A stretch of DNA of 64,000 bases. Origin: an uncultured Acidobacteriota bacterium. GTDB lineage: Bacteria > Acidobacteriota > Blastocatellia > RBC074. The notes below the pieces were generated by a model. The model was not told the origin of the DNA and searched no databases. It worked only from the letters and a program-made list of their open reading frames with translations. The first letter of the stretch is position 1, and each line of letters starts with the position of its first letter. The translations under genes and the position numbers were made by a program. This document shows positions 1 through 40,465 of the stretch, piece after piece. The DNA lies in contig CAWEYR010000014.1 in the NCBI GenBank assembly GCA_963813345.1, positions 66,874-130,873 on the forward strand, given 5' to 3'.

Positions 1-269
1 AATAGATGACAAAAGCGTCAAAGATGTTTACGTGATTACATACGAAAAAGCTCGTGCGCTCGGCGATCAAAGCCCGGCGCATAGCGCACCTCAAAATCGA
101 CTCCGGCAACCCTCAGAATATTTCGAAAGAACCATCGCTGAGGCCGGTCGTTTCGTCGAGGATCAATGAAAATCCCGATGAGTACGAGAATGCTGCAAAC
201 GGGAAAGAAGTGAAGAGCGCTCAGTATCCAGACGAGGACAGCGCGGATCGTATAGTATGCCTGCTTCAT
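1..269 (-). CDS. PlsC/LPLAT-family 1-acylglycerol-3-phosphate acyltransferase-like protein. 5' part only; runs off the window start. Frame broken near 40-75.
   Basis: ORF 36..269 gives a hydrophobic N-terminus. After its stop, the neighbouring frame reads [16 protein letters not shown], which carries the NHxxxxD acyltransferase motif. ATGA start/stop overlap with the upstream lipid kinase at 266-269. Confidence 0.6.
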
Positions 270-1165
270 ACCATGACCCGGAGCACCGACGGAAGGACCT
301 CGAGCGAACGACAGTCGAGCGTCATCACCTCGCCGTCAATCATGATGTCAATTGGCTCATCGAGCTCAAATGAGACATGGGTTGCAGGTCCATGCCAGAT
401 CTCGGGGTGCGTAATATGAGACCCGTCATAAACTTTCGGAAAGTTGCGCAGGAAATCGAACCTGCCGGCAGACCATCTTACGATTTCGACCTGACCATCA
501 TTCGTCTCTGCGTGAGGCGCAAGCATCATATTGCCGCCGGTAAACTTGCTGTTATTGAAGATCAATAACGCCGTCTTGTGACTCGAAACCTGAGGCGAGC
601 CATTCACTCTGAGCTTGAAAACCCTTTGCCGGAAGCGGGCCATGCACAGTACTACTGCAAGAAAGTAGCCGGCCGCTCCCAGGCGCTTGAATCGCCGATT
701 GGCGAGGGTGCAAACGTCAGCGACGAAACCAAGGCTAAGAATATTGATGTAATAGACATCTCCACCGCTGTGGTGCAGACGCACGACGTCACAGGGACGC
801 TCACGTGACTCAAGAATTGCGCTCAAGGCAAAATCGACTCCCTCCTTTGTGAAATCACGAAGGAAGGAGTTGCCGGTGCCTAGCGGAAGAAAGCCGAGAA
901 CCGGAGTCTCCGCTCCAGGACTCTGGGGAAAGAGTCCATTTACAATCTCAAAAGATGTGCCGTCACCACCGACTGCGATGAATCTGCGATAACCGTTCGC
1001 ATACGCTTCACGAGCAAGTGCCGTTGCGTCTCCAGCGCGCCTTGTCTCGACGGTATCGAGGACTATGCCCTGCGAACGCAGGCGGTCCAGCACCGGGGCG
1101 AACAACTGCCCGCAACGTCCAAACCCGGCTGCGGGATTGACGATCGCGAGGTATGGTTTACTCAT
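266..1165 (-). CDS. Diacylglycerol-kinase-catalytic-domain lipid kinase (YegS/BmrU-like)
   Basis: 299-aa ORF with AVGGDGT and LPLGTGN motifs typical of the DAGK_cat family. ATGA overlaps at both ends (266-269 and 1162-1165). Confidence 0.85.
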
Positions 1166-2883
1166 AACTCTTGAAGCGCAGTGCTTCGATCGAAGCGATT
1201 GCGGATTGCCTCGGCGAGCGCAAAGCGTTTGATCTTCATCGACGCAGTCCGCGGGAACTCTTCGTTCCAGATTACGTAACCACTCAGGCGTTTGAAATTG
1301 AGAAGTTTGCGATTCCTCGCGAGAATCTCGTCACGAAGCGCGGGTGTCATCTCCTGACCGTCGTCGAGATGAACCACAATCACAAGCTTCTCGCCGAGCA
1401 TCGAACGCTCCGGCCAGATGTAGTTAGCCGCAAAGACACAGAACTCTTTGACCGGTAGACCTTCGAACGCGTTCTCGATATCTTCAGGATAGACGTTCTT
1501 TCCCTCTTCAGTGACGATCATGTTCTTGACACGACCTGAAAGCTGAAGATGACCCATCGAATCGAATCTTCCAAGATCACCGGTCAGCAGCCATCCATCA
1601 ACGATCGTTTCAGCCGTCAGCTCGGGATCGTCGAGGTAATGCGACATGACAGTCCTGCTGCGGATCGCAACCTGACCGATTCCATCTGAGTTTGCATCGA
1701 CGATCCTGACTTCCATTCCCGGCAGCGGCCGCCCGACTGTATCGGCACGAAACGGCTTCAAATCGTTGAGCGTCACGGCCGTCCCGGCCTCTGTGAGTCC
1801 ATACCCATTGGAAACCTGGATACCAAGGTCGTAGAAGAACTTTAGCGTTTCCGGGCTCATGAACGCGCCGCCAACAAAGAGCGTGCGCAGCTCGCCCCCA
1901 AATGCTGAGTGAACCTGCTTGAGCAACTTTCTGCTGAGCTCGAGGTTTGGCGCCTTTTTCGTCAGTGCGCGATTGAGCGCGATAAGCCGGTTGAGCACAA
2001 ATCTCTTTGACGCCGGAAGCGCTGCAAAGCGGGTTCTCAATCCTGTCTCGAGATTCTTGAGAACCATTGGCACAAGAGCCATGTAGGTAATGCGATATTT
2101 CGTGAAAGCCTCACGCACATATTCGGGTCTGAGTGTTCTTAGATGAACAACCGTCGCACCACATACGAAAGGCCCGACAAAACCAACCATGAAATCGATG
2201 GCGTGATTCGTTGGCAGGACACTCAGATACCGTACCCCCGGCCAGAACGGATAGAGCGAAGTAAGTGCGACGCATTGTTCAAGGTAGTTGTCGTGCGTGA
2301 GAATGCAGCCCTTCGGACGCCCGCCCGTCCCTGACGAGTAGACAATGCAAGCCCAGTCGCTGCGTTGGCGTGGCACAAAGGCCGGCTTTTCAGTTGATTC
2401 CCTGGACCTCGTATCCTCCCATCGAATGGCTCCGTACAAGTCAGCCTTCTCTGGGGCGTCGGTCACGATCACGGTGGAGACTTTGAGTGCGGCAAACTCC
2501 GGAAGTGAGGCGATTGCCCGCCAGATATGATACTCGGTGATGAGCACCTCAGCCTTTGAGTGCTTGAGCAGCGTGATGTGCTCGCCGGGCGTCAGCTTGT
2601 AGTCGAGCGGTACGAGGACGCCACCGGAGTAGAAGACGGCATACGCTGCGATCAACCAGCGCGATTGATTCGTCATTATGATTGCAGCGCGCGATCCGTT
2701 GCCGAACGACCGATTCTGTAGGAATCCAGCCAGCGGCAGAGCAGCGTCTCTGAACTGACGATATGTGAGTTGATGATTCTCGCGTTCGCGATCGGCTTCG
2801 ATCAGACACACCTCGTCTGCAAACTGTTCGAGGGCATCCGTAAGGGCTTCACCGAGCGAGTGATACTTCGTCAGGTCCAGCAT
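1162..2883 (-). CDS. AMP-dependent synthetase/ligase (fatty acyl-AMP/CoA/ACP ligase)
   Basis: 573-aa ORF with [22 protein letters not shown] and GRVKNM adenylate-forming motifs. It lies directly downstream of, and is coupled to, the ACP gene. Confidence 0.9.
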
Positions 2884-3125
2884 CAGAGTCGTGATTGGAT
2901 GCGCTCGGCCAGCGTGCGGAAGTCCGATACACCTTGAACTTCGTAGTCCGGGAGCTCGATGCGGAAGTGATTCTCGAGGCGCGTAAGCAGCTCGAGTGCC
3001 TGAAGACTGTCGATCTTCAAGGTCTTGAAGAAGTCATCTGTCGGGCTGAGCTGTTCGCGCGGCACCTTAAAGTGGTTTGACGCAAGCGTCAGAATCTGGT
3101 CAACCGTGTTATCAATGTTCGTCAT
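2883..3125 (-). CDS. Acyl carrier protein
   Basis: The last 80 codons of ORF 2883..3356, starting at the ATG at 3125, carry the [11 protein letters not shown] phosphopantetheine-attachment motif. The upstream part of that ORF is translated repeat sequence. Confidence 0.85.
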
Positions 3126-3177
3126 TTCAACTAACTCTGCCGCGGAGCGGCTTATTGATCCTGGCCACGTTCGAGCT

Positions 3178-3410
3178 GCGAAGCAGCGAATCACCGCGGA
3201 GCGGTGCGAGAACGTAGCCAGGGGTTGAGTCTTCGAAACCCCTGGAATCGATTCCATTGACCAATCGCATCCCGGAGGGATGCGAGAAAGAGCGGGTTGC
3301 ATCGAATATCGTTTCTCGCATCCCTCGCAGGGATCGGCACTACTCGCACAACGCAATCCAGGGGTTTCGAAGACTCAACCCCTGGCTACGATCTTTGACG
3401 CCTCCGGCGT
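3178..3410. repeat. Composite palindromic REP/MITE-like element (family E)
   Basis: About 68 nt (3178-3245, including the hairpin CCAGGGGTTGAGTCTTCGAAACCCCTGG) recur inverted at 3358-3390. Inner hairpins: TCGCATCCCGGAGGGATGCGA at 3265-3285 and GACGCCTCCGGCGTC near 3396-3410. A near-identical composite lies at 59611-59855. Confidence 0.8.
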
Positions 3411-3444
3411 CAAGCGAATCCATACACCAAACTCAGCAAACTTC

Positions 3445-4249
3445 TCATGGCAGGTACGGATGAGCGTCTGTGCTCTCGACAAATTTCTGCAAGCCTGCCT
3501 GCACGGCAGGTTTACGATACAATTCGCAAAACAGGTCCACCTCGCGCCGAAGTTCTGTGTAGGGAACCGGTTTCATGAATCCTTTCGCCGCTTTGCTCGT
3601 AGCTCGGTCAAATTTGCCAGTCTGAACCGAAGCCAACCTTGCGAGTTTCAGAGACTCACCCTCGGCTGCGACCTGGCTCACCAGGCCGAGGGCATGCGCG
3701 CGCGTCGCATTAATGCTTCGGCCCGTTAGTAATAAATCTCGTACGATCGCGTTTCCGAGATCACGACGTAACCTCGGTATTCCACCAAATCCCGGAATCA
3801 GCCCGAGCCGCAACTCCGGAAAACAGAAGCGAGCCATTTTGTCGGCGATGATCAAATCGCAAACAAGTGCCAGTTCAAACCCACCGCCGAAACAGACTCC
3901 GTGTACGGCGGCAATCGTGGTCAGGCTGCTCGAATCGATCGCGTTGAGAACCTTGTGGATGCGCTCGAGAAAGCCCCGCACGCCAGTCGCCGCGTCCTCG
4001 TCTGAAAGCTCCCTGCCTGCGAAATAGAGTTCACGGAGATCGGCACCAGCGCAGAAGCCGGGCTGTCATACGGCTGTAAATGATCATCGCGTGCGCGCTC
4101 TTTTCGAGCTCTTCGAGCGCACCTGCAAATACCTCGAGTTCACCAAGCGTCTCTGTTCCGATCTCATTACAGGGTGCCCGATGCAATGCGACTTCTACGC
4201 ATCCCTCGTTGACGCTCCAACTGATGGCGTTTCCTTCAAAGCTTGTCAC
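3445..4249 (-). CDS. Enoyl-CoA hydratase/isomerase (crotonase) family protein. Frame broken between 4034 and 4065.
   Basis: ORF 4031..4249 is the N-terminus, ending AMIIYS. The frame of ORF 3445..3981 continues upstream as [16 protein letters not shown], the crotonase oxyanion-hole region. The two frames are offset by one nucleotide. Confidence 0.8.
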
Positions 4250-5966
4250 GCTCCGCGTAACTCCTCGGCTTCCTGTTTCTCCTGCTGTCGAGCCTGATAC
4301 ATACCTTCGATCTCTGTTTTGAAAAACTCCGCAATCGAGCCGCGCTTCAGCTTGCCGTTAGCCGTCAACAGTCCGCTCTCGATTGTCAGCGGTTCCTTGC
4401 GAATATGATAGCCACGAACCTGACGATAGTGCGGCATTGCCGAGTTGACAGTTTCAAGCGCAGAACCAACGCTCGCGGTGTCGACATCACCTGTAATGAT
4501 CGCCGTCAGGAATCCTCTACCATTTCCATGAAGGACGACGTTGCTTGCTTTTGGCAATGCCTGTCTGATCTGTTCTTCGATAGGTTCCGGCGCGATGTTG
4601 TGACCCGAACCCAGAATGATCAGATTCTTGATCCGGCCGATGACAGCCCAGTTGCCACGCTCGTCGACCTCTCCCTGGTCGCCTGTGTGAAACCATCCGT
4701 CTGGGATCGAAGCACGAGTCTCCTCGGGCCGGTTCCAATAGCCCTTGAATACGTTGGGTCCGCGTACGAGAATCTCGTCGTTTTCGCCCAACCGCATTTC
4801 TACGCCAGGAATAGCCGGACCAACGCGACCCGGTTCGTAATCGAGCGGATCGTCCATGGTACAGATCGCTGTCGTTTCGGTCAGCCCATAAACCTGTAGA
4901 ACCGGGATGCCGAGCATCATAAAGAACGACTGCGTTTCTTTCGATAGTGGGGCCGACCCGCAGATCAGGGCCTTCAAATTGACGCCGATCTTTTTCCTGA
5001 TTGAATCGAAAATCAGGCGCTGGCCAAGAGACTGCCAGACCATTCCGCTTACGCTCGCGATGCCCATCACGGTTTGCAAGCCACGCGGCTTTGCTTTTCG
5101 CGTAGAGCGTCTTTATCCAGTCCGGTTTCTGTGCAATCTGACCCTCAACACCCGTCCTGATGCGTTCGAGCAGGGCTGGAACATTCAAACAGTATTGAGG
5201 CGATGCAAGCTTGAGCTCATCTGCCAGTTTCTCGAGATTTGTTGAAAGCGTCAGAAGGCTGTTGCGGAGGAGACAAGAAAGAAGCAGTATCCACGATCCA
5301 GCGAAGCAGAAGGGAAGATAGTGAAAGACCTGTTCGGCTGCGGTCTGGCCCTGCATCAGCCTGTCGAGGCGGGCGCCCGTGCACGAAAGCATGTGATTCA
5401 CATTCCCGACATCGAGCACCACACCCTTCGGAACACCTGAGGTGCCTGAAGTGTAGATAATCGAAACCGGATCGCTATCTGCAAGCGGGCTCAATGTGAG
5501 GCTCTTGAGGGGCTTTGCCCGCGACTGAAGCTGGGAACATCTCGTCAAACAATGCAATACGTGGCAACGTAATCGCTGGCAACGCGACATCTGACGCGTC
5601 ACTCCACGCACTTCGTATTGAATCGGCCAGGGTATTTGTGTCAGAGAGGATGAGCGATACCCCTGCGTCCTTCATCATAAAGACGAGCTCGGCTGGAGCT
5701 TGTCGAGCGTACAGCGGCACCACAATGATACCTTCGGCCATGAGCGCGAGGTCAGCTGCTACCCAGCGAATGCTGTTCCCGGCGAGCAGAGCGCAGCGAT
5801 CGCCTTTCTTGAGACCCGTTGACCGCAGAAACTTGCGCGCGGCTTCAACCTGATCGGATAATCCCAGGCCATTTACAGTGACCAGCGCACCATCTCGCAC
5901 TTCGCGCAGAATGGCATCATTGGGGCTGGTAACCAGGCGATCGAATATCTTTTCGAGGAAGTTCAT
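4246..5966 (-). CDS. Long-chain acyl-CoA synthetase-like AMP-ligase. Two frame breaks (about 5055-5085 and 5480-5560).
   Basis: Three consecutive pieces. ORF 5475..5966 is the N-terminus. The upstream part of ORF 4517..5611 carries [16 protein letters not shown] 4246..5079 carries YGLTETT, GWFHTGD and GRIKNLI. Confidence 0.85.
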
Positions 5967-7375
5967 CCGTAGTTCTCGAGAATACGCTGGAGCGTCGGAG
6001 TCAGCGGTGGGAGGTAATCATCCCAGGTTCTGGCACCAGGACGCACCGGGAAATCCGGATAGCATTCGAGGAGCTGCTGTTCAAAAAAGACGCCCATATG
6101 AGCGAGCACCTTGAGGTTGCGGGCTACCGTCTTGCCGATGCCCTCGCGAATGCCTTCGTGTTCCGAAAGCAGCCTGCGCATGATGACCACCAGTTTCTCT
6201 TCAAGCTCCGGGTCGTCAACAGTGAGCATGAGATCAGAGTGTCCGCGTTCGTGCATCAGATTGCGAATCCGCTCATCCATTGTTACCCCTGCAGAGGCTA
6301 CAAAAGCGGGCATGCACGTGACGATGCCATGAAACCGCGAAGAAACCATAAGGTGAGCCTCGCGAAGAATACTGACAAGCTGATACATGTCATACTCCGC
6401 GGACCAGAAAACCGGCACCCCGCCGAGCCTCTCTGACATCCTTCGGCAGGCGTCAATATCGAGGCTTTCCATCGCTACCAGAACTACAAATACATTGTGC
6501 TCCCGGCGGAAACGCTCGACCGCATTCGACATTGCAGAAAGATAGTTCTCGTAGGCGGAGGTCACTTTGGGTCCCGAATTATGGAAGTAGACCGAGCGGT
6601 AGTGGCTCTCTTTGTAGGCTCCAGTCAGGGTTTTTGCGGCAAGTTTTGCGACCGATGCCTTTACCGGCCACCAAAACGGGTTGATAGGACAGACGGCCAT
6701 AACAGGAGTCGATTCATCCCATCCGGAGTCGCGCAACGCCTTGCGGCCAAAGTCTGAAGCCAGAGGCTCGAATGTCCAGGCGGTATCGGTGCCAAGTTCG
6801 GTCGCAACGCCAAGTTTGCCGAGTACAGTTTGCGACTCCTGGTTTCTCGTTATGATCATGGACTGCTTGCAATATCGTGAACACATGTTTGCAAGGGTCG
6901 GATCCATATACCCGGCCTCTGCGCCGTAGCCAATACTCAACTTGTTCTGAGCCGCAGCAATGCCGAGCGACCCGATCATCATCGTTGTCAACGCATTCGC
7001 AAACTTGCTCTTGAACATCGAGCCTTCACACGCGACTACTCCATCATGCTTTGGCACTTCCGAGTAAAGAAACGGTGGAAATATCTGCGGCAGCTCGACC
7101 TGTCTGATGCCATTGAAATAACCGCGCGTCAGCTCGGGATTGTGAGTCAATACACTCAATTCGGAATGGTCATCACCCAGTATGCGCCGGATCTGGCGGA
7201 GCATCTCTTCTACACGCACGTCCGAGCCGGTGTTGCGAGTGCCATTGTAACCCGTAAAAAGCAGCCGCAATTTGCGTCCGGGCTTCCATCGCTGGCCGGA
7301 CCCGAGCATCCATTTGACCTTCGAAAGCTCAACGAGGCCGCTGACCCATGCCTCGAGAGCGAGATCCATACTCAT
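5963..7375 (-). CDS. Polysaccharide-pyruvyl-transferase-like protein (PF04230-like)
   Basis: 470-aa intact ORF. An N-terminal [12 protein letters not shown] motif and a C-terminal SSRFHGIV...GV pattern resemble the pyruvyl transferase family. This is recognition by eye, not an HMM hit. ATGA overlaps at both ends. Confidence 0.6.
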
Positions 7376-8508
7376 CTAACAACCATCTCCTTCTTTTCTG
7401 ACCATTCCCGGTAAGGATAAGTGAAGTTGCCATCCCGGCTGAACTTGAGAAGCGGATAACAGTAGTTCGAGAAAGGTACTGGTTCTGACCCGAGCTCATT
7501 CACAACCCTTGAATTGTCAAATACCGTATTGAATGTGAGGTAGGGCAGGAATACCTTCAGCAGCGAGGCACTCTGACCGATCGCAGTACCGCGACGGTTC
7601 GCAAGAAAATCAACAGTGCTCGAGAACGCCGACTCGAATGAAGGAAAAAATAGTGGCCCCTTCCTATTTCCAGCGCGCGCAATCGCATCCGTCAGCTGGC
7701 GGAAAGTCTGCGATTTCACGCCGGATGAGAGGTGATAGATGTCATGTGAAGGCGAAGGCTTCTGGTGAAGCGTTGCAATTGCGCTGGCTACAAAGTCGAC
7801 GTTGACAATATCAAGCTGGTCGTCCGGTCGAAAAGGAAGCGCCGGAAGTGACGCGAGAAACACGAAACTGCGAACCATTTCGAACTGCGTTGTCTCGGGG
7901 TATCGGCTGTCACCAAGCACGATGCTCGGTCTGAAGACGAGGTGCGAAACATCAGGGAGCAGCTCGTTGACCATATGCTCTGTGAACTTCTTCGTGCGTG
8001 CATACGGATCAAAGTCCGAGAGTTCCCAATTGATGGCAGTGTCTTCTTTTACAGTTTCATTCTGCCGGGCACCGGCGACGGCAACTGTCGAAACGTGGCT
8101 GAAGCGGCGAAGCCCATTTGTGGCCTGCGCAGCCTGCGCCAGTTTGACGACTTCAAGAGTTCCGCGCAGGTTGACGTTCAGGCAACTCTTCTCGCTTCTC
8201 CGGTTGAGAGAGGCAGCGCAGTGAATTACTGAGCTCGTCTGGCGCACCAGGTCGCGGTAGTCAGAATCGCTCAGCCCGAAATGCGGAATCGTGATGTCGC
8301 CTCTGAAGACCTTGATTCGCGAATGGATGAACTCTGAGTACTGATCTTCGCTTAAATGAAGTTGCAGGCCACGCCACAGCCGCGAGAGTGATTCCCGTTC
8401 GTCTTTGGCCCGCACCAGCAGGTTGAGTCGAACCGAATCCTCGGTTAGCAGCTTCGCTGCGACGTGAGCGCCAAGGTAACCGGTCGAGCCGGTTATGAAG
8501 ATCGACAT
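7372..8508 (-). CDS. NAD(P)-dependent reductase, thioester-reductase/NAD_binding_4-type SDR
   Basis: 378-aa ORF starting [13 protein letters not shown] (Rossmann TGxxGxxG), with a YARTK catalytic Y-x3-K. Confidence 0.8.
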
Positions 8509-8515
8509 AGCCTGA

Positions 8516-10933
8516 TCAGGTCCCTACCGTTTCATCTGCGAGGATAGCCCGCCGTCCCGCCCGAGCGGTCTCGGGCTCAGGCTCGGACCGGGCAAGCCTG
8601 ACTTCGCGGCGAGATCGAACGTCACCAGGCCGCCCTTCGATGATCGGGTATGACCATTTGCGGAGAGCCGGAATATGCACGTTTATCCAGTAGTCCCACC
8701 AATCGATGCTCGCGGCATCATAACCGAACTCGCGGAGCTCATCCTGGGGAAGACCAGCCGATAGAATCTCGACATTCCTCGCTTCAAATACGTGGACATT
8801 GTGCAGAATGAATGGTTCGTAAAGCTCGATCAGCTTTTCCACGCGATCAAGGTCGCGTTCCCGGCGAACAAGAGGTGAACGTGCCATTGGCAAAGGCGAG
8901 GTGATTTTTAGCAGAGCCTGAACGACAGCCTTCTGCCGCGGCGCCGACAGCTTCTGGTAGCGCTCTTTTGATACAGGAATTGAATCGAACATCGAAAGCA
9001 GACGATACTCAAAGTCCGGCTGCGCGCGATAATGCTTCCGGTGAGCCAGGCCGGTCAGCTCGATTGAGCGTCGCATATTGCACGGGTTCGATGCAGAAGT
9101 AGCCAGCTGATATATCTGTTCGTGTTTGCGCTCGATGAGAGCAGCTGAGATCAACAGCATTCCACGACAGACAAGGTCTACCGGCACGATGTCGAGACAC
9201 TTCCGCCCATTTGAGGGAAGCTGACGGAAGTATGTGCCAAGGAGGTAAGAGAGAGGTGCCGAAGTGTTCACGCCCTCGTTCCATCCACGGAAAGGATCGT
9301 CAGTCGAGGTTTCAACAATAGAAGGTCGAACGATGGTTATCGGAAGGTTCTTGCCTCGCGACGCGAGAAGGGATTCGGCAAGACTTTTCGTGAGCGTATA
9401 CGTATTCGGCCAGCCGAGCTCAGCAGCGCGCTTCATTCCTGTTTCGATGAGCTCGTCTCTTACCCAGCGGGAGCGCAGCTTCTTCAAGTGAGCGTCGAAT
9501 TCGCTGTCAGACAGAATCTTCTTCGCGCGAGATCGTACTGTTTGACTGAGTTTCTCCGTAATTTCTGTCGAAACCGATCGAGAATCGATCTCGCTGACAA
9601 GGTCTTTTAGATGCAGATACTCGGTCTCTGCACTGAAGTCCTCACGAAATTGCGGGTTATAGTCAGTGTTGAGCTGCTCGCCGATTCGCCCGTCGCGAAA
9701 GCCGACGACATAACATGTCGATAGATGGAGCAGCGCAGCATTGCGGCACTCTTTCTGAAACTCGATCAGATTCGCGACTCCATCGATATTTATTGAAAGC
9801 GCCAGCCTTAAATCCGGATTGAAATCGGTTAAGCCGGAACTATTAATGATTAAATCTACTTCGCTAAGTAGACGGCGTTTTATCTCGGGTGCAATTCCGA
9901 TCCCCGGCAAACTGACGTCACCTTCAATAACTTCAACACGTTCGCGGATGAAATCGGCGAATCGGTCGCGCTGGGTCTCCTGAAGCTCGTCAAAGACAGG
10001 TGACTCTTCGAGTATCTTTTCAAAGCGGCGAGAGGCCGACGTCGATCGCTGTTTGCGGATGAGGACAATGACCCGTCCGATATCGGGAATGCTCTTGAGA
10101 ATCTTGGCAAGCAACACTTTCCCAATGAATCCGGTGAATCCGATCAGGAGTATTGTCTTTCCCTCAAGTGACCCGCGCACCGAGATATTGTTGACACCGT
10201 GCAGAGCATCGAAGAGGACGAGCGGCCCGCGCACACCGGTCATAGTTTCGCGTGATGGTCTGACTGCGCTTGCGAGAATCTCTTCGTGATGGGCAAATCC
10301 GAGTCTCGCTGCAAGTCTTTCCGCGGATATTCGTCCGTCAATCTTTCGTCCGATGATTCGTGCCAGAAACTGGCGCGGTCGAATCACGGGGCTTTCGAGA
10401 CGGCCGGTAGCGAGGCCATCGCGGAACTCGAGCCGGTTGGCTATCAGCCGGTTGACGCCAAGATGCCGTGCGAGTGGCCGCATGACGTGGTCGAGACCCT
10501 GGCTCACGAGGACTACGTTGTCGCCCCTCGATACAATGCCGGACAACATTTCGACTGCCGCGGAGCGCAGTTGAGGCTTAAGAACGTAGTCGAAGTACTC
10601 CTCGCCCAGTAAGTCGAGGCGGTCTCTGCTCACGCCCCGGAGCAGGGTATGAAGGACTCGAGTCGCGAAGATCCGGTCGATCGCATAGAGAAGCGGCCGC
10701 ACAAGGGCGAGGAGAAACAACCCGCCGCGACGCTTCCAGCGCTCCGAGAAGGTCTGCGCGTTCCAGGTAAAATAGGCTACCGGGCGCACTGCGCTCAGAT
10801 TGAGCAGACTCCCCTCTACCCGCCAGTAGATGGTGGGGGACAAATCATTACCCCTGGCTGTCGGAACTTCTGTCACAGCTCTTATTTGACTGACCTCACA
10901 AGCTTTAGTGGAAAAGCGTGAATACGCAACCAA
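8516..10933 (-). CDS. Fusion protein: HAD-IB-like N-terminal domain plus fatty acyl-CoA/ACP reductase (FAR, male-sterility NAD-binding type)
   Basis: 805-aa ORF. The N-terminal ~230 aa are HAD-IB-like. They are followed by [14 protein letters not shown] (FAR Rossmann motif) and a long FAR-like C-terminus. The TTG start at 10933 is uncertain. Confidence 0.8.
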
Positions 10934-11083: not shown

Positions 11084-11128
11084 CCGCCCGTTGACTCCAC
11101 CTCATAAACCGCCTAGGATCGCGATATC

Positions 11129-11521
11129 GTGTTCAAAACGTTGCGTGCAGGCTTCTTGCTGGTTCTGGCTCTCTGCCAGATAGCTCCGGCCGTCGCCCTG
11201 ATGCAGCCGCCGGCGGTGACCTGCGGAATGGAGTGTTGCCTCGAGAGCGGCGTCGAATGCTGCGTCGTTCAGCATCGCGACGGTGTTGATTCCCACGAAA
11301 GCAAAGTCTCCGCAACCAGAATTACTTCGCCCTGTCCTTCCAACTGTGCCCTCATATCGGCAGGATTTCAGCGTGTCGCTCTTAACTCCGGGCCTCGCGC
11401 CGTGTCGCTCTCTTATGTTGCAACGGCCCTCGTAATTGCTGATCAATTCCCCGGCTTTGAGCGAGATCCTCTGATCATTGGCTCCGTCGCACCTCGCAGC
11501 CCTCCATATAGTCTTTGCTGA
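11129..11521 (+). CDS. Hypothetical small secreted cysteine-rich protein
   Basis: 130-aa ORF with a GTG start, a signal-peptide-like N-terminus (FLLVLALCQIAPAVA) and a CGMECCLESGVECC cluster. Third-position G+C looks coding-like. An antisense ORF (11102..11446) competes with it. Confidence 0.35.
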   Translation: MFKTLRAGFLLVLALCQIAPAVALMQPPAVTCGMECCLESGVECCVVQHRDGVDSHESKVSATRITSPCPSNCALISAGFQRVALNSGPRAVSLSYVATALVIADQFPGFERDPLIIGSVAPRSPPYSLC

Positions 11522-14360
11522 AAATTCGATACGTCAATTGGACAAAGCAGATCTGCGGTGGAACCAGCGGGGTGGTGCGGTGTTCCGTGTACGTTGGGTT
11601 GTCGATAGCTGTTTACTTGTGCGTCTTTGGCTTTCCGTCTTTTGCACAGTCCGTCAGTTCCGCAAACTTGACAGGACTCGTACAGGACGGAAGCGGTAGT
11701 GTCATAGCAGCAGTTCGCATGACGGCGATCAATCTTGAGAAGAACCAGCAGTGGTTTACTACAACCGATTCTCAGGGGCGCTATCATTTTCTTTATGTTC
11801 CGGTGGGGCGTTATCAGCTTCGTGCCGAAAAGGATGGGTTCCAACCTGTAGAGCACAAGATCACGCTTACAATCGGACAGTCGCTCGAAGTGCCAATCCG
11901 TCTCATCGTTCGAGGCATAACGGAACAGGTGAACGTGACCGGTGAATTGCCGCTTCTTGAGTCAACCAGATCAGAGCTTGCCGAAACCATCCTTACACGC
12001 GAAGTTGATAGCCTTCCGCTCAACGGTCGAAACTATCTCGATCTTGCGGCTTTGACTCCGGGTGTCTCGCGTGGGAATCCGGTAGGGAATCAACGCTTCG
12101 CTGAAACGTCTGCAGTGCCAGGTACGCAGATATCCGTAGCTGGTCAACGAAACATCAACAACGGTTTCATAATCGATGGGCTTTCGGGAAATGATGATGC
12201 CGCTGATTTGCCGGGAACTTTCTTCAGCCAGGAGGTCATAAGGGAGTTTCAGGTCATTCCTTCCGGAGGCGTCGCCGAATTCGGCCGTGCGTCAAGTGGT
12301 ATTGTCAACGTCGTTACGCAATCGGGAGGCAACGCCTGGCACGGTCGTTTCTATGGCTTCCTGCGCAATCAAAGGGTGGATGCGCGGAACCCGCTCGCGC
12401 AAACGAAAGACCCGCTAACACAGGCTCAGTACGGGGCGACCGCCGGTGGGCCAATTATTCCCGGAAAGACATTCGTTTTCGGCAATTTTGAACAGACACG
12501 ACTGAACAACTCGGCAGTAGTCACAATCCAGCCGGCCAACGTAATAGCCATCAACAATGTTCTCGATCAAATCGGTTTGTCGAGTGCGCGTATTGCGACA
12601 GGTATTGTCCCAACCGGATATGACTCGACCAACGTTCTTTTAAAGGTTGATCATCGATTGAATGATGCGAACATGCTGGCTGCGCGTTATAGCTTCTATG
12701 ACATAGACAGCTTCAATGCGCGTAGCGTTGGCGGGTTGAATGCCGAGACTCGCGGAACTGCGCTTGTGAATCGTGACCAGACGGTGGCTTTGAGCGGGCT
12801 GACAACATTCTCGAGTCGGACGGCAAATGAACTCAGGCTGCAGTTCACGCGAAGCCGGCTTGGAGCACCTCCCAACGATTTGGTTGGCCCGGCAATCAAT
12901 ATTGCCGGGATCGCGAATCTGGGCACGTCGACTACATCGCCAACCCGGCGCGACATAGACCTCTTCGAGATCGTTGACAACATCACACTGTTGAAGGGTG
13001 ACCACTCGATCAAAGTGGGCATCGATTTTCTCTACAACAGGATCAACATAGGATTTCCTGGTGCGCTCCAGGGCGCGTATAACTTTTCGTCGATCGCCAA
13101 TTTCCGTTCGGGCACATACACACAGTTTCAGCAGGCGTTCGGCGATCCAATTCAATTTCAATCGAACCCCAATCTCGGCATTTTTGTTCAGGATCAATGG
13201 CGAGTAAACCGGACAGTGACTGTCAATGCCGGGCTCCGTTACGACTTGCAATGGCTGCCTGATCCGATTGGAACGGACGCGAACAATGTGGCGCCGCGGC
13301 TGGGGATAGCATGGGCGCCGAACGGCGGGAGTCTTGTAGTTCGAGCAAACTACGGAATCTATTTCGAGCGTATTCCGTTGAGAGCGACATCGAATGCGCT
13401 TCAACGTGATGGATCGAAGTACCGCGTGGCGCTTTTCACATTTGGCCAGACGGGTGCACCGACATTCCCGCAGGTTGCAAGCTCGTATCCGCAAGGATTT
13501 CTGCCGAGTGTAACGACGATTGATCCTTCGATCGACAACGCATACTCGCAACAAGCCAGCCTGCAGCTGGAAAAGAGTTTGACTTCGAACACGACATTGT
13601 CAGCGGGTTACCTGTATACCCGCGGACTGCACTTGATACTGCAGCGTAATGTGAACGTCCCAAGGTTTCCCGCATCGGCAGGCGTTCCAAACCTTGGCCG
13701 GCCAAACCCGAACTACGCAAATATCACTCGCTACGAGAGCTCAGGTGATTCGTATTATCACGGAATGGCAGTCTCGCTGAGCCGTCGATTCAGCCAGTGG
13801 TTTGGCGCACGACTCTCCTATACTCTTTCAAAAGCGATCGACAATACGGGCAATGCTTTTTTCTTTCACGCCGCAGGATAACTTCAATCTCCGAGATGAC
13901 CGTGGGCTGGGAGATAATGACCAGCGGCATTTGCTCGCTGTGAGCGGTACGCTTGAAGCCGCTTTCGCGGATGACGAAAACATCTGGAAGCGAATACTTT
14001 CCGGATTCCAGGCGAGTTATGTCTTTCGATATGGTTCTGCCCTGCCATTCAATATCGTGACGGGAACTGATCGGAACAACGATACGAACGTCAACGATCG
14101 CCCCGTAGGCGTTGGACAGAAACACCGGGCGAGGATTCGACTTTGCGGCGCTCGACTTGCGCCTCAGTCGACAAATCCGCTTGAGCGAGAGATTCAGGTT
14201 GGATGTCATCGCCGAAGCATTCAACATATTCAACCGAGCTAATTACCAGATCCCGAATAACACGTTTGGACCCGGCACTGTTCCTCCGCCCGCGTTTGGC
14301 CGGCCAACAGCTGCCGCTGATCCAAGACAGATCCAATTTGGTCTGAGGATCGTCTATTGA
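11515..14360 (+). CDS. TonB-dependent receptor with N-terminal carboxypeptidase-regulatory-like domain (Oar-like). Two frame breaks (13857-13866 and about 14108-14116).
   Basis: ORF 11515..13881 has a signal peptide plus the DGSGSVIAAV...GRYQLRAEKDGF CarboxypepD_reg pattern. It continues in ORFs 13802..14242 and 14112..14360, which end in the outer-membrane-barrel-type terminus QFGLRIVY. The first break sits in a T6 run (13857-13862). The start may be the GTG at 11572. Confidence 0.85.
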
Positions 14361-16218: not shown

Positions 16219-16773
16219 GCCCGCCAAGCGGCAGACGCGAGAGAACTGTATATCTTGAGCCGGAGCGGCCGAGCTCACTTTGGACAACCAAAAGCTCGTC
16301 AACTACAAAGTCTCTGTCCTGGAATATGTAATCGACGCATGTCGAAAGCATGGCTTCGATTGCTTCAGTCGACTTTATTCGCCCTAAAGTGAGGTGAGGG
16401 CGCAACGGCTTTGAATCGGGCGCGAATCCTTTCATCGCAAGATAGTCATTCAGTCGCGTGGCAAGCGAAACCAGACTGTTCGTTTCTCCTTTAAGTCCTA
16501 CCCAGAGCACTCTGGGTTGCTTTCTATTGGGAAAAACGCCGATTGCATCGAGACGCAGAGAGAATGGGCTGTGCCTTTCGTTGCCCGCTGGCAGGTTTCG
16601 ATCACGGTATCGAGTGACTTGTCATCTATCTCGCCCAGAAACTTCAGTGTCAGGTGAATATTGGCGGGAAGAGTCCAGGTAATACGCGCATTGGATGCGC
16701 GAAGCAGGTTTTGAAGGTCAGCCAGCTCGTTTTGAATGGTGGACGGGATTGTATGAGCAATGAAGACTCTCAT
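16181..16773 (-). CDS. thpR: RNA 2',3'-cyclic phosphodiesterase (2H family, ThpR/LigT). Frame broken around 16510-16580.
   Basis: ORF 16498..16773 carries the first HxTx motif (HLTLKFLGE). The frame of ORF 16181..16510 carries the second (PHLTLGRIK). That frame reads PFSLRLDAIGVFPNRKQPRVLWVGL upstream of its annotated start. Confidence 0.8.
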
Positions 16774-16788
16774 GTGTCAGGCCTGCAA

Positions 16789-16818
16789 AGATTCCGCCTG
16801 AAGGCGGTACAACGTACC
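16789..16818. repeat. REP-like hairpin unit (family A, CCGCCTGAAGGCGG core)
   Basis: AGATTCCGCCTGAAGGCGGTACAACGTACC. The same ~30-nt unit occurs at 32238-32306 (pair), 41442-41470, 43334-43397 (pair), 58754-58782 and 59896-59922. Confidence 0.75.
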
Positions 16819-16835
16819 TGAGTTATAATCGAAAA

Positions 16836-18908
16836 ATGGAACGCAGAATTGTTCGTGGCGCTTGCCCTCACGATTGCCCGGATACGTGCGCACTGCTTGT
16901 TACGGTAGAACGCGGTGAAGCGACTAAAGTTGCTGGTGCTGCCGATCATCCTACAACGGATGGATTTCTTTGCACGAAGGTAAATCGATATCTCGAACGA
17001 ACTTATAGCCCTCAGCGAATCCTCTTTCCTATGAAGCGGGTCGGTCCGAAGGGCAAGGCTATGTTCGCTCGGATTTCGTGGGATGAAGCACTCGACACAA
17101 TTGCGAACCGGTTCCGCGATATCGCCGAATCTGCAGATGGCCCGCAGGCGATCGTGCCGTATAGCTACGCAGGAACGATGGGTCTCGTACAAAGCAGTTC
17201 GATGGACCGGCGTTTCTTCCATCGGCTTGGTGCATCGCTGCTCGACCGCACGATCTGTGCTTCGGCCGGAGCAGCCGGCTACAAGGCGACGATTGGCGCA
17301 TCGGTTGGGACGGATCCTGAGGCCTTTGATGATGCGAAGTTGATTCTCATCTGGGGTTCGAATCCGATCACTTCGAATGTGCATCTGTGGCCGAAGATGC
17401 TCGAAGCGAGACGCAAGGGAGCAAAGCTCGTAGCCATCGACCCGTTTAGAAGCCTGACAGCTGAAAAATGCGATCAACATCTAGCGCTTCGGCCAGGGAC
17501 CGACGGTGCACTCGCGCTTGGAATCATGCACGTGCTTATCGATGAAGGCTTGATTGACCGCGACTACATCGAGCGTTACACGATTGGCTTCGATCAGCTC
17601 AAGGAGCGAGTCCGCGAGTATCACCCTGAGCACGTGGCTTCGATTACTGGACTTGATCGGGAATCAGTGGTGGCCCTCGCTCGCCAGTACGGTCAAACGA
17701 GACCATCAGTAATAAGGCTAAATTACGGGATGCAACGGCATGCCGGTGGCGGAATGGCAGTCAGAGTGATTGCGTGCCTGCCGGCTTTGACTGGCGACTG
17801 GAGGCACGCAGCCGGTGGCGTGCTTCTCTCGAGCTCCGGGACCTTCCCGATAAACACTCACGCGCTGGAGCGCCCGGATCTTATCTGGAACAAGCCGAGA
17901 ACAATCAACATGTCGACGATCGGCGACGCTCTGCTGAACGAAACGCCTCCGATTCGCGCTCTTTATGTTTACAATTCGAATCCGGTTGCAGTCGCACCTG
18001 AATCTCCAAAGGTGATCGCGGGATTTTCGCGCGAGGATCTTTTCACTGTAGTCCACGAGATATTTCCGACCGACACGGCAGACTACGCCGACATTCTCTT
18101 GCCGGCAACAACGCAGCTCGAGCAGTTCGATATACACAAGGCTTACGGCCACCTCTATTTACTGATCAACAATCCGGCCATCGATCCTTTGGGTGAATCC
18201 AAACCGAACAGCGAGGTGTTTCGGCTGCTTGCCGCACGTCTGGGTTTTGAAGAAGAGTGTTTCCGTGATTCCGATGAGGAGATAGCGAGACAGGCGATAA
18301 CGAGCAGCCATAAATGGATGCCGGACGTTTCGTTGGAAGACTTGAAGGAGCGCGGATGGGTGCGTCTCAATGTTGGTGAGCGGTTTGCGCCATTCGAGTA
18401 CGGAAATTTTCTGACACCGTCTGGCAAATGCGAATTCTATAGTGAGACGCTATTGAAACAGGGTATGGACCCGCTCCCTTCCTACATTGCTCCCCGTGAG
18501 TCAAAGGAGAGTGCGCCAGAGCTCGCAGCGCGCTACCCGCTCGCTTTCCTTTCTCCACCTGCGCACAACTTTCTCAACTCGAGTTTCGCTAACCTGCCGT
18601 CATTTCTGCACGCCGAGAAGGAACCATTTCTTCTGATACACCCTGACGATGCCGTGGAGCGTTCGATAGTTGAGGGTGATATGGTGCGCATCTTCAATGA
18701 CAGAGGTTCGTTTACAGCCAAAGCGCGAGTAACAGACAAGTCACGCGAGGGAGTTGTGGTTGCTCCTTCTGTCTGGTGGAGAAAGCTTACAAAGGACCAG
18801 AAGAACGCGAATGAGGTTACTTCACAGAAGTTGACCGACCTCGGTGCCGCCGCTACGTTCTATGACGTCCTGGTCGAGGTGCAACGGAGCGAACGCGGGC
18901 AGGCTTGA
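16836..18908 (+). CDS. Molybdopterin (MGD)-dependent oxidoreductase family protein
   Basis: 690-aa intact ORF. The N-terminal [13 protein letters not shown] is the 4Fe-4S Mo/W-bis-MGD motif. Molybdopterin-binding and C-terminal beta-barrel regions are recognisable. Confidence 0.9.
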
Positions 18909-18909
18909 A

Positions 18910-20736
18910 TTGGCTACGATAACAAAAGCTCCAGTGAGGGTTCGGGCCAGGAGAGAAGGTTCGGCCGCGAGATTGCTCGCGGATCAGGTCTTCTCGCGCG
19001 CAGCAGGTGCGCCTCTTGTTTCTGGTAACGCCGTTCGTCTTCTCCGAGACGGAGAAGGGAACTATACGGCGTGGTGTGATGCGTTCGCTCGAGCAAAGAA
19101 GTCGATCCTTTTCGAAAGCTACATCATTCACGAGGATGAATGTGGCGAACAATTTGCCAGGACCTTTATCGAGTGCGCACGGCGAGGCGTAAAGGTTTAC
19201 ATTCTCTATGACTGGCTCGGCGCTATAGGTAAGACTTCCCTCGGGTACTGGCGGCGCCTTCGCAAGGAAGGTGTCGAGGTCCGCTGTTTCAATCCCTTTC
19301 AGTTCAGCGACCCAATCGGCTCGATAATGCGCGATCATCGCAAGACGGTCGTCGTGGACGGCAAGATAGGATATGTAACCGGACTCTGCATTGGAAAGAT
19401 GTGGCAGGGTGACAAAGAGAGAGCCATCGAGCCGTGGCGCGACACAGGAATCGAAATCGCCGGACCGGCCGTTGCCGACCTGATTCATGCTTTCTCGCGC
19501 GCGTGGGATACGACTGGCGAGGCGTTGCCAGAAAGTGAGCTTGTCACGCGCGATGAGATACCACGAGCAGGTGATGTCGATGTTCGCGTTGTGGCAACAG
19601 AGCCTCAGACGAGCGGTCTCTACAGGCTTGATCAATTGATTGCCGCGGCTGCGCGATCGCGCCTCTGGCTGACCGATGCATACTTTGCTGGCACGCCGGC
19701 GTACGTTCAGGCGCTTATCGCAGCAGCGCAGGACGGCGTTGATGTACGGTTGCTGGTTCCTGGTGCTAGTGACATCCCGGTACTGAGCGGATTGTCGCGC
19801 GTTGGGTATCGTCCGTTGCTTGAGGGTGGTGTTCGCGTTTTCGAATGGAACGGCGCGATGATTCATGCAAAGACAGCGGTTGCCGACGGTACCTGGGCGC
19901 GGGTTGGATCGACGAACCTTAATCTTGCAAGCTGGCTGAGCAATTGGGAGCTCGATGTCGCCGTCGAAAGTGAGCCATTCGCTCGCGAGATGGAAGACAT
20001 GTACATCGATGACCTTTCGCGTTCGACTGAAATTGTTCTCAATGCAAAACACAAAGTAGCTTCCACCGGCCAGAAACGACGACGGGGTGGTCGCGGCTCG
20101 CGGTCAGGAAGTGCGGGAAGAGTGGTGGCAGGTGCGCTCAGTCTCGGCAAGGCCGTAGACGCCGCGATCAGCAAAAAGCGCGAACTCGGTGCCGCAGATG
20201 CCCAGCCCATTACGTTTGTAGCTTTGTTGCTTTTCGTGCTCGCCGCAATCGCGTTCAGATGGCCGCGAGGCATCGCCTACCCTGCCGGCGTAATTGCGGC
20301 CTGGATGGCGCTTGCTCTCTTTCTGCGAGCCGTGCGATTGGATCGACTTGGCCGGCGCAAAGGCGAGCAGGCAATCGCCACAGATAAAAGGTTGAAGAAG
20401 AGGAAGTTCGAGGCATGTCAGAGCCTCATCGAGCTTGACATAGCGAGGTTCGACCATGTTGATTTGCAAGTCGCCAGTCAGCCTGAAGGCGCCGTGCTGG
20501 CAATGCAAAGCGTCGAGTTCAACTCATCAGATGCTACGTTCAAAGCACTGCCACTGAAGGCGCAGCGCAACTGGCGCTCAGGCTCTGCTTCTGACATGAT
20601 TCAGCGTGCCGTTGATTACTCCGCCGAGAAGAATCGAGAGACTTGTAAAATAGAGCCACAGCATCAATACCATGACGCCTCCCAGCACACCGTAGATCGC
20701 ACTGTAATCCGATATTCTTCCCACGTAGAAGCGTAG
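18910..20736 (+). CDS. Phospholipase D / cardiolipin-synthase-like protein with a C-terminal membrane extension
   Basis: Two HKD motifs (HRKTVVVDG and [10 protein letters not shown]...GSTNLN). The reading frame opens at 18844 inside the previous gene; I propose the TTG at 18910 as the start. The last 159 nt overlap the convergent yihY, so the true 3' end is uncertain. Confidence 0.8.
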
Positions 20737-28614: not shown

Positions 28615-31398
<2,784 letters not shown>

Positions 31399-31414
31399 TA
31401 TTGACTTCTTCTCC

Positions 31415-32183
31415 TTATTGATTGTTATTTGTGACGCGTAGACGGTCGACAAAAGCGACCGACTTCAAATCGCGTTCAATAGTGCGGCGTATTAATTTTG
31501 AGGCGAGTGTGCCGATCTGCTGGAGCATCCGGCTATCGCGCTTGATTGAGAAAAAATCGACTGGGTTCCTGGTTAGGATATCTTTGAGTCCTGCAAGCAC
31601 TTCGCGCCGTAGTTCGTCCCCGCGCCTCCCACTGCAGGACAGACAAAGCGGGGCGCCTTCACTGGTCATCCACACGGATTGCTCCTGCGGAGAGGCTGCG
31701 GCTGCAGACGTGACAGGTGCTGAGATCAGCCAAAAAGCCCGAAAGCCTGAGCATCCATACCTCGAAATAGCGCGAGATTGCAGGAAGCTCGCGTGCGCCC
31801 GATAAACTCATTGCTTCAATCGTTGCTCCTACCAATCTGTAGACCCGTTCATTTGGCTCGTGATCGGGAACAAACTCAATGACGAGCTCGGCAATATAGT
31901 GCAGTGCTCCGAGCCGTTCGGAGGTGATTTCGTCACTGAACTGCGGCCTGATAATGTCGCAGGTCGAGATCGAAACAAGTTCCTGATTCTCCTTCTGATA
32001 GTAGCTCAAAGCGACCTCAGTCAGCGGCTCGAGACTCGAGCCAAAGCGGCTGCGGAGCTTTCTGGCTCCCTTGGCGACTGCGCGCACCTTGCCTGCATCT
32101 CTCGTAAACAGGACACATATCTTGTCTGCCTCTTTCAGCGTATAGGTCCGCAACACAAAGGCGTCGGTCCGGTGAAGCGGCAT
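31415..32183 (-). CDS. recO: DNA repair protein RecO. Frame broken around 31660-31715.
   Basis: The start MPLHRTDAFVLRTYTLKEADKI is the RecO OB-fold N-terminus. The CHVC...CLSC zinc motif is split between ORF 31659..32501 and ORF 31415..31675. Confidence 0.85.
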
Positions 32184-34398: not shown

Positions 34399-34401
34399 CG
34401 A

Positions 34402-34639
34402 CCTGGGAGCGTCGCCGCTCCTGGGAGCGCCGGTCTCCGACCGGCCACGAGCCGCGAAGCGTGCGAGTCTTCAGCACAAGGACTCTCCAGGACTCGCACG
34501 CTTCGCGCCTGGGAGCGCCGGTCTCCGACCGGCCACGAGCCGCGAAGCGCGCGAGTCTTCAGCACAAGGACTCTCCACGACTCGCGCGCTTCGCGGCTCG
34601 TGGCCGGTCGGAGACCGGCGCTCCCAGTGCGCTCCCAGG
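34402..34639. repeat. REP family B locus: one truncated and one complete palindrome
   Basis: The left arm CCTGGGAGCGCCGGTCTCCGACCGGCCACGAGCCGCGAAGCG occurs twice in direct orientation (34420 and 34508). The full reverse-complement arm ends at 34627. The locus sits between convergent genes. Confidence 0.85.
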
Positions 34640-34641
34640 TA

Positions 34642-34962
34642 CTAAGGAGTCCGGTTCGAGAGGCGCTTGTAGTACTCGTCCACTAGTTTGCGGTATTTCT
34701 CAGGCGCCTCGCCCTGATCGGATAACCTCAAGTTGTTCTTTCCGAGTCTGGCTTGAAGCCGCCGGCTGAATTCCATCTCGACGCCACGAATTGGATCGAC
34801 TACCTGGGCTTTCAGCAGTGCTGCCGTTTGCATGTCGTCCTTATACTGGGCGTTGGTCATCTGCCTGAGCGCTTCGATTGCCTGGTCGAGCCCGCGTGTC
34901 AGTTCTCGATCCCGTCCGATAGATCGACGAAGGTCCTCGAGATCACGCAAGCGATCCCGCAT
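34642..34962 (-). CDS. Conserved C-terminal module, probably the true 3' end of the large DUF4175-like gene upstream (or a separate 106-aa gene)
   Basis: Clean ORF in the same frame as 35101..38388, separated from it by a TGA at 35101-35103. Its ending EKYRKLVDEYYKRLS looks like the conserved tail of this protein family (by eye). Confidence 0.55.
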   Translation of the reverse strand: MRDRLRDLEDLRRSIGRDRELTRGLDQAIEALRQMTNAQYKDDMQTAALLKAQVVDPIRGVEMEFSRRLQARLGKNNLRLSDQGEAPEKYRKLVDEYYKRLSNRTP

Positions 34963-38388: not shown

Positions 38389-38415
38389 AGTCTTACTCCG
38401 CGTCCACTGCAGTTA

Positions 38416-40458: not shown

Positions 40459-40465
40459 GCGTTAC

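Follow-up and report, generated by a model that had tools for sequence, protein, structure and literature searches.

A conserved acidobacterial operon as a candidate aerobic elb-type pathway to alkyl glycerolipid precursors

Acidobacteria make ether-linked and membrane-spanning lipids that are the presumed source of brGDGTs (branched glycerol dialkyl glycerol tetraethers), compounds widely used as palaeothermometers in soils and lakes. How do aerobic bacteria form the ether bond? Here we analyse an operon of nine genes at positions 1-10933 of a 64,000-nucleotide (nt) stretch of DNA, referred to below as the window, from contig CAWEYR010000014.1 of the acidobacterial assembly GCA_963813345.1. 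We propose, with a probability of about 0.5, that the operon encodes an aerobic, elb-type pathway that would convert fatty acids into fatty-alcohol-derived precursors of alkyl or ether-type glycerolipids. The operon is found in two or more acidobacterial classes and provides a testable lead on the ether lipids of aerobic soil bacteria.

In order of transcription, the genes encode a fusion of a HAD-like domain with a fatty acyl reductase (FAR; gene 1), a stand-alone short-chain dehydrogenase/reductase (SDR) of the thioester-reductase (TR) type (gene 2), a pyruvyl-transferase-like enzyme (gene 3), AMP-ligase 1 (gene 4), a crotonase (gene 5), an acyl carrier protein (ACP; gene 6), AMP-ligase 2 (gene 7), a YegS-type lipid kinase (gene 8) and a PlsC-type acyltransferase (gene 9). 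These domain assignments had been made in a first-pass annotation by reading the sequence; searches of the nine products against Pfam and NCBIfam profiles back every one of them. NCBIfam gives no equivalog-level name to any of the genes except the lipid kinase, whose subfamily it names.

The strongest evidence that the nine genes belong together is their conservation. A search with the transferase family gave over 7600 close matches, most of which bear the label Acidobacteria or Blastocatellia. When one genome of each GTDB species was scanned, at least 578 loci proved to encode a relative of the transferase; the best 80 of these are mostly labelled as Acidobacteriota, of the Blastocatellia and Terriglobia types (Terriglobales, 'Acidiferrales', Sulfotelmatobacter), and a few have other labels. 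We then searched loci from other species with the nine proteins by tblastn, counting synteny in the 47 that have full 10-kb flanks. Genes 1 to 8 occur in the same order and on the same strand in 42 of them, all nine genes are kept in 16, and the remaining five loci retain at least genes 1 to 5. Orthologues are 46-67% identical for the HAD-FAR protein, 64-75% for the transferase and 65-81% for the ACP. Five close relatives (L001 to L005, of which L001 is the closest locus from a named metagenome-assembled genome (MAG) and L004 and L005 are short-read-style contigs) carry the same operon, and genes that are broken in the window are mostly intact there. On this comparative evidence, the operon is not a chance cluster.

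Which known system does it resemble? In Myxococcus xanthus, the elbA-E genes encode two proteins of the NAD-epimerase type (ElbA and ElbE), a HAD-like protein (ElbB), a protein of unknown function (ElbC) and ElbD (PMC9131029; PNAS 2026). ElbD unites FAR, ACS, ACP and AGPAT domains in one polypeptide, as the first-pass annotation correctly stated, and an i15:0 aldehyde of M. xanthus depends on it (PMC9131029). The annotation had also proposed that the ElbD inventory is present here as separate genes; Pfam searches confirm this, in the window itself or in intact orthologues. Both systems contain a HAD-like protein, a FAR, an adenylating enzyme, an ACP, a PlsC/AGPAT-type acyltransferase and an SDR of the epimerase or NAD_binding_4 type, and both occur in aerobic organisms with iso-branched alkyl ether lipids. 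They differ in architecture: here, and in the related loci examined, the ElbD domains are spread over genes 1, 6, 7 and 9, and the HAD-like domain is fused to the FAR. They also differ in content, since the acidobacterial operon has four further conserved genes, encoding the pyruvyl-transferase-like enzyme, a second AMP-ligase, the crotonase and the YegS-type kinase. The operon thus looks like a dissociated and extended elb system.

A comparison of gene neighbourhoods with Acidobacteria had been suggested in the first-pass annotation. The operon proves to be conserved there; what the annotation missed is that an elb-like cluster was already in the literature. An elbB-E cluster, including a variant with a split elbD, has been reported in subdivision-4 Acidobacteria, which contain abundant glycerol ethers, and the role of the acidobacterial elb-like genes is stated there as not demonstrated. 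A candidate link between elb genes and ether lipids in Acidobacteria was therefore known. The present analysis adds the conserved PEP-transferase/ligase/hydratase/kinase extension (PEP, phosphoenolpyruvate), the phylum-wide synteny and a set of gene fusions, which together give a concrete, testable hypothesis for the biosynthesis of bacterial lipids and brGDGTs.

What would each gene do? In the scheme that we propose, AMP-ligase 2 would load a fatty acid onto the dedicated ACP and the HAD-like/FAR protein would reduce the loaded chain to an alcohol. The transferase would place a PEP-derived enolpyruvyl (C3) unit on the alcohol oxygen, creating the ether bond. AMP-ligase 1 would then activate the new carboxylate as a thioester, the crotonase would hydrate the 2-alkoxy-acrylyl thioester at C3, and the thioester reductase would reduce C1, yielding an O-alkylglycerol. 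Finally, the YegS-type kinase would phosphorylate the O-alkylglycerol and the PlsC-type enzyme, where present, would acylate the phosphorylated product. As far as we can infer, this is the only scheme found that gives every conserved gene a role: it would explain the two ligases and two reductases, the lone hydratase and the kinase. The conserved kinase fits a backbone that is made unphosphorylated, because no kinase would be needed if the pathway started from glycerol phosphate. The building of the backbone from PEP is a tentative part of the proposal, well short of even odds. Its generalization, that aerobic Acidobacteria and some Myxococcota build the C3 backbone on a fatty alcohol from PEP and not from glycerol phosphate, is doubtful. 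If the PEP route is true, it would be a third, chemically distinct route to ether lipids beside those of AGPS and PlsA/Ger; if it is false, no candidate locus for the alkyl lipids of Acidobacteria is better defined than this operon.

The two reductases were assigned from profiles and motifs. The gene 1 product matches HAD (PF12710) with 51 bits and NAD_binding_4 (PF07993) with 187 bits; its match to Sterile (PF03015), at 34.5 bits, lies 0.9 under the cut-off of 35.4, and the domain is listed for orthologues. The FAR motifs GFTGFIG (GxxGxxG) and YTLTK (YxxxK) are both present. In the HAD-like domain, motif I reads YWRVEGSL, with Arg in place of the nucleophilic Asp, and there is no DxDxT. A motif survey found [YF]WRVEGSL in 65 of 67 orthologues. 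Because the nucleophile of motif I is lost, the HAD-like domain is probably not a phosphatase. The gene 2 product matches NAD_binding_4 with 155.9 bits and Epimerase (PF01370) with 56 bits, carries GxxGxxG and YxxxK motifs and is 92% identical to its orthologue in L004. Against the thioester-reductase model TIGR01746 it scores 138 bits, under the cut-off of 213.35, so that it is TR-like with membership not certified.

The pyruvyl-transferase-like enzyme is central to the PEP scheme. Its score against PS_pyruv_trans (PF04230), 33.4 bits, is above the cut-off of 25.3, and it matches the CsaB model TIGR03609 with 67.5 bits over profile positions 2-291 of 301, where the equivalog cut-off is 213.1. 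These scores describe a member of the superfamily and not a CsaB equivalog. The AlphaFold model (mean predicted local distance difference test score (pLDDT) 79, predicted TM score (pTM) 0.81) has a two-domain, GT-B-like fold, for which the best Foldseek matches in the PDB are generic GT-B enzymes with TM scores of 0.4-0.5. The residues that are invariant across 25-58 diverse members of the family include R177, D197, D306, R347, H349, D367 and R369. In CsaB, R148, R306, H308 and K328 (R217, R337, H339 and K361 in Pvg1p) have been implicated in PEP binding by mutagenesis and docking (PMC10435577). The spacing of R177, R347-x-H349 and R369 in gene 3, R...R-x-H...(20)...R, parallels that of CsaB R148, R306-x-H308 and K328. 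The likeness to CsaB, Pvg1p and WcaK (PF04230) thus comprises a Pfam match above the gathering score, a nearly full-length match to CsaB, a GT-B fold and the residue spacing. In contrast to those enzymes, the gene 3 product belongs to a distinct subfamily of about 470-500 amino acids (aa) with N- and C-terminal helical extensions, it is encoded in a lipid operon and not in a polysaccharide locus, and its proposed acceptor is a fatty alcohol and not a sugar diol. The chemistry would be analogous to the formation of an enolpyruvyl and then a lactyl ether by MurA and MurB; the fold of MurA is unrelated to that of gene 3.

Few proteins of the operon are as well conserved as the transferase, and fusions connect it to its neighbours. 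One metagenomic lineage has the transferase fused to an enzyme of the AMP-ligase-1 type, with a TR gene adjoining; in another, the Sterile domain of the FAR is fused to the transferase and is followed by a crotonase, an ACP and a gene of the AMP-ligase-2 type. These two fusions tie the transferase functionally to the reductase and to ligase 1. A MAG of the Nannocystaceae (Myxococcota) has a four-gene core of HAD-like protein, FAR, TR and transferase, 36, 37, 55 and 52% identical, respectively, to the acidobacterial proteins, and its HAD motif is likewise degenerate (FFRAEGVL). A search of a library of representatives with the transferase found no protein labelled as myxococcal. A profile of distant transferase members found MAG proteins from Nannocystaceae, Myxococcales, Planctomycetes and Pseudomonadota and none from Myxococcus. 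A search with the Nannocystaceae FAR recovered only stand-alone reductases of 560-580 aa and no ElbD-like multidomain protein.

The remaining genes are consistent with the proposed steps. Genes 4 and 7 both match AMP-binding in Pfam, and intact orthologues of AMP-ligase 1 are 549-566 aa long. The ACP is 99% identical to its orthologue in L004. The crotonase, 267 aa in its orthologues, keeps both catalytic-Glu motifs, GGGxELAL and PE(L/V)xLG, in the window fragment as well as in the intact orthologue, and these align with the 3-hydroxybutyryl-CoA dehydratase 5jbw. Its closest solved structures are 3-hydroxybutyryl-CoA dehydratase, EchA8 and 3-hydroxypropionyl-CoA dehydratase. Since these motifs are kept and no other β-oxidation enzyme was found in the operon, a role as a hydratase is supported. 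The kinase scores 134.4 bits against TIGR00147 (cut-off 118.65) and is the only operon product that passes an NCBIfam cut-off. Gene 9 runs off the start of the window; its orthologues are 253-254 aa long and contain PF01553.

Other routes to alkyl lipids share parts of this logic. In the FAR/GNPAT/AGPS route of animals and M. xanthus (MXAN_1676-1674), as here, the alkyl chain comes from a FAR, and a C3 phosphate backbone is the substrate of an acyltransferase. No gene for an AGPS-type flavoenzyme was found among the nine genes or in their immediate flanks; the ether bond must therefore form by other chemistry. PlsA/PlsR and Ger, which reduce esters to ethers in anaerobes, give the same class of product, bacterial alkyl or alkenyl glycerol ethers. 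These enzymes are oxygen-sensitive and reported absent from subdivision-4 genomes, and the operon has no homologues of them. Carboxylic-acid reductases and the adenylation-thiolation-reduction (A-T-R) modules of enzymes resembling non-ribosomal peptide synthetases use the same combination of ligase, carrier and thioester reductase to convert a carboxylate to an aldehyde or alcohol. They differ in that the proteins here stand alone, with two ligases and two reductases in one operon.

Several observations weigh against an ether-lipid pathway of this kind. The main objection is chemical: attack at C2 of PEP would give a 2-O-alkyl ether, and reports on both Acidobacteria and M. xanthus (the latter in PMC9131029) describe 1-O-alkyl monoethers. 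Sn-2-type ether bonds, which the PEP route would naturally give, are needed also by diether and brGDGT lipids. Both profile matches of the transferase, to Pfam and to CsaB, are weak. Its PEP site is assigned by position, from the spacing of motifs; searches of PDB sequences with two profiles of the family gave no meaningful match from which an alignment to CsaB or Pvg1p could be verified, and Pvg1p, a pyruvyltransferase of solved structure, is not among the 50 Foldseek matches listed for the model. More distant members of the transferase family lie in unrelated gene neighbourhoods, so the link to the lipid operon holds for this subfamily only. Beside the Nannocystaceae core there is no ligase, enoyl-CoA hydratase or ACP gene nearby. 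The likeness to elb lies in the domain inventory, the MXAN_1527-1531 proteins having been compared by description. Many loci of the Terriglobia type show no PlsC-type gene after the kinase (in L050, checked in detail, unrelated genes follow), and the presence of the operon in Terriglobia-type MAGs extends beyond the organisms with known lipids. In the literature searched, no experimental product is reported for an acidobacterial cluster of this kind and no paper links a pyruvyl transferase to elbD or to ether-lipid genes. The inference first drawn from the sequence, that a reduced chain is joined to a C3 unit and then phosphorylated and acylated, has gained from the PEP-like residue spacing, the fusions, the crotonase motifs and the conserved kinase; it is weakened by this regiochemistry. 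The first-pass annotation had also missed that three genes of this copy are frameshifted.

Could the fatty aldehyde or alcohol instead be joined to a pre-formed backbone? In an Elb-like route of the kind proposed for ElbD and ElbE, the acceptor would be glycerol-3-phosphate or dihydroxyacetone phosphate (DHAP), and the transferase, AMP-ligase 1 and the crotonase would be accessory enzymes of chain or head-group modification or of salvage. Such a route would account for a domain inventory equal to that of ElbB, ElbD and ElbE, for the ElbD-dependent aldehyde of M. xanthus and, unlike the PEP route, for the 1-O-alkyl regiochemistry that has been reported; the weak annotation of the transferase also speaks for it. 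It leaves strictly conserved genes (transferase, ligase 1, crotonase and kinase) without a needed role, one of them, the transferase, highly conserved and fused elsewhere to the FAR or to ligase 1, and it makes the kinase superfluous on a backbone that is already phosphorylated. It is the main rival, but we consider it unlikely, for both the route itself and the accessory role that it assigns to the three enzymes.

Alternatively, the product may derive from a fatty alcohol or aldehyde and not be a glycerol ether at all: a pyruvylated (ketal) lipid, a lactyl or glyceric-acid ether, a wax-type neutral lipid or another envelope lipid as yet undescribed in Acidobacteria. Classical members of the transferase family do make pyruvate ketals on diols (PMC10435577). 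The spread of the operon among Terriglobia-type MAGs, outside the ether-producing subdivision 4, would be unsurprising for such a product, as would the mismatch between the PEP route and the known monoethers and the silence of the literature searched on pyruvyl transferases near elb genes and on acidobacterial products. Yet no wax synthase or DGAT gene is present, the kinase and PlsC-type acyltransferase point to an intermediate resembling phosphatidic acid, and the elb parallel together with the abundant ether lipids of subdivision 4 favours an ether glycerolipid. We regard a product of another class as improbable. Four further candidates were rejected: a locus for polysaccharide pyruvylation (sugar genes are missing, and the synteny of the lipid genes is fixed), a β-oxidation operon (acyl-CoA dehydrogenase, 3-hydroxyacyl-CoA dehydrogenase and thiolase are all missing), an Ole-type olefin pathway (no OleA or OleB, and an OleD match of only E = 1.7e-4) and a sphingolipid cluster (no serine palmitoyltransferase).

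A different kind of doubt concerns this copy of the operon. Within 11 kb, three of its nine genes contain four frameshifting insertions, none of which occurs in L001-L005. Two insertions, of 4 nt at 5500-5503 and of 1 nt at 5057, distribute AMP-ligase 1 over three frames; both proved specific to the window when it was aligned with three orthologous loci. In the crotonase, the break comes from a single additional nucleotide at about 4060-4066, where the window reads ATGACAGCCCGG and its relatives ATGGC-GCCCGG or ATGAC-ACCCGG. The PlsC-type gene is shifted at about 56-68, leaving the HX4D motif (NHVNIFD, at 17-37) in another frame. Programmed frameshifting is rejected: the shift sites have no common motif and the relatives are unshifted.

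If the four frameshifts are real, the operon of this genome is decaying into pseudogenes and its pathway does not work here. The number of insertions, their absence from the relatives and the presence of a mobile repeat between two operon genes would all fit such decay. The same damage, however, is found outside the operon: a TonB-type OMP_b-brl_4 receptor (11512-13881 / 13781-14242), a peptidase M1 (56492-57505 / 57361-58716) and a second enoyl-CoA hydratase (51533-52083) are also split, which points either to insertion-deletion (indel) errors throughout the assembly or to a genome with many pseudogenes. Closely related, near-identical long contigs are broken in other operon genes, a pattern typical of indel-prone assemblies: L003 has its HAD-FAR gene in four pieces, and a 60-kb ENA contig has its transferase gene in two. 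Apart from the shifts, the window's reading frames are open and similar to those of relatives. L001, L004 and L005 keep most of the nine genes intact, with an 8-nt deletion of its own in the L004 crotonase. Because unrelated genes of the window are similarly split, related contigs are broken at other genes and L001, L004 and L005 retain most operon genes, the frameshifts are most likely assembly errors rather than signs of operon decay; that the cluster is a pseudogene relic is a poor bet.

The coordinates of the operon are collected in Table 1. The nine genes are co-directional and on the minus strand in the order first described. Of the five start/stop overlaps that had been read as ATGA, those at 266, 1162, 5963 and 7372 are as described, whereas that at 4246-4249 is GTGA. 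At 2883 the AMP-ligase 2 start overlaps the ACP stop by 1 nt (TGATG), and the 7-nt gap at 8509-8515 between genes 1 and 2 is likewise as first reported. Gene 1 probably starts at a GTG at 10876 and not at 10933, judging from a tblastn comparison with L004 and an alignment; its relatives are 788 aa long. Promoter and terminator scans gave background levels only.

Table 1. Features of the operon at window positions 1-10933
Feature	Position	Strand	Basis
Gene 1, HAD-FAR fusion (NAD_binding_4 + Sterile)	8516..10933	-	Pfam, tblastn, alignment
Gene 2, stand-alone thioester-reductase-type SDR	7372..8508	-	Pfam, NCBIfam
Gene 3, pyruvyl-transferase-like GT-B-fold enzyme, 470 aa	5963..7375	-	Pfam, NCBIfam, AlphaFold, Foldseek
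Gene 4, AMP-ligase 1, ACSL/FadD11-like with AMP-binding_C_3, broken	4246..5966	-	Pfam
Gene 5, crotonase/enoyl-thioester hydratase, GTG start at 4249, broken	3445..4249	-	Pfam ECH_1
Palindromic MITE-like repeat in the crotonase-ACP gap	3126..3444	.	Repeat comparison, RNA fold
Gene 6, acyl carrier protein, 80 aa, DSL motif	2883..3125	-	Pfam PP-binding
Gene 7, AMP-ligase 2, long-chain fatty-acid ligase type	1162..2883	-	Pfam 239.8 bits, NCBIfam
Gene 8, YegS/BmrU/Rv2252-family lipid kinase (DAGK_cat + YegS_C)	266..1165	-	Pfam, TIGR00147
Gene 9, PlsC-type acyltransferase, 5' part only, frameshifted	1..269	-	Motif, orthologues with PF01553

The gap between the crotonase and ACP genes is, as first proposed, filled by a repeat element. 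It is palindromic and belongs to a family of about 230 nt resembling miniature inverted-repeat transposable elements (MITEs), with inverted arms of 50 nt and an inner palindrome of 15 nt. A second copy lies at window positions 59618-59853 (the two window copies are 80-83% identical) and a third at a non-homologous site in L003 (1757-1971); the repeat was not found in the other related loci retrieved. The 3126-3444 repeat folds far better than shuffled sequences (RNA fold z = -10.3), and, transcribed with the operon, it would give a very long RNA hairpin.

In 15 sister loci of the Blastocatellia type, the same position between the crotonase and ACP genes is occupied by a gene for a FabH-type β-ketoacyl-ACP synthase III (KAS III; Pfam ACP_syn_III + ACP_syn_III_C). 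These loci are L007, L009, L010, L012, L013, L015-L019, L021 (14116-15147), L022-L024 and L028, and their FabH genes share about 80-84% mutual identity. Neither the window nor L001-L005, L008 or any locus of the Terriglobia type has this gene. The operon had been described as lacking a condensing enzyme: this is true of the present copy, which has no ketosynthase, glycosyltransferase-annotated or radical-SAM gene, and of its near relatives, but not of the operon family. Insertions of other kinds occur elsewhere. In L001 an IS605-type element (OrfB/TnpB-like protein and Y1 transposase) lies at 7031-8698 between operon genes 1 and 2, and several other loci have insertions of 0.6-2.6 kb between operon genes, such as fragments of ABC-transporter genes in L007.

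Upstream of gene 1, a short minus-strand open reading frame (ORF) at 11114-11275 shares 57% identity with an ORF of 79 aa that occupies the same place in L004 and L005. It was not found in the 80 loci at greater distance, and may be a leader peptide or mark a conserved regulatory region. At 16764-20736 a molybdopterin oxidoreductase gene is followed by one for a PLD-like protein with two HKD motifs, of the cardiolipin-synthase type. These neighbours flank the operon in L001 and L003 as well; synteny therefore reaches past the nine genes. A gene for pyruvate phosphate dikinase, a PEP-forming enzyme, lies at 28615-31464; as regards the PEP hypothesis, its presence in the window is probably a coincidence. 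An ORF at 52120-53760, adjoining a family-9 glycosyltransferase gene, has a phospholipid N-methyltransferase (PEMT) domain and DUF3108, and would fit synthesis by methylation of phosphatidylcholine, a head group reported for subdivision-4 Acidobacteria. Finally, the region 34000-38412 is unusual in composition (GC 0.60, AT skew -0.33). It coincides with the gene for a 1103-aa DUF4175 protein, which adjoins BatA/VWA and MoxR-type AAA genes (38416-42537) in an operon resembling the Bat aerotolerance operon.

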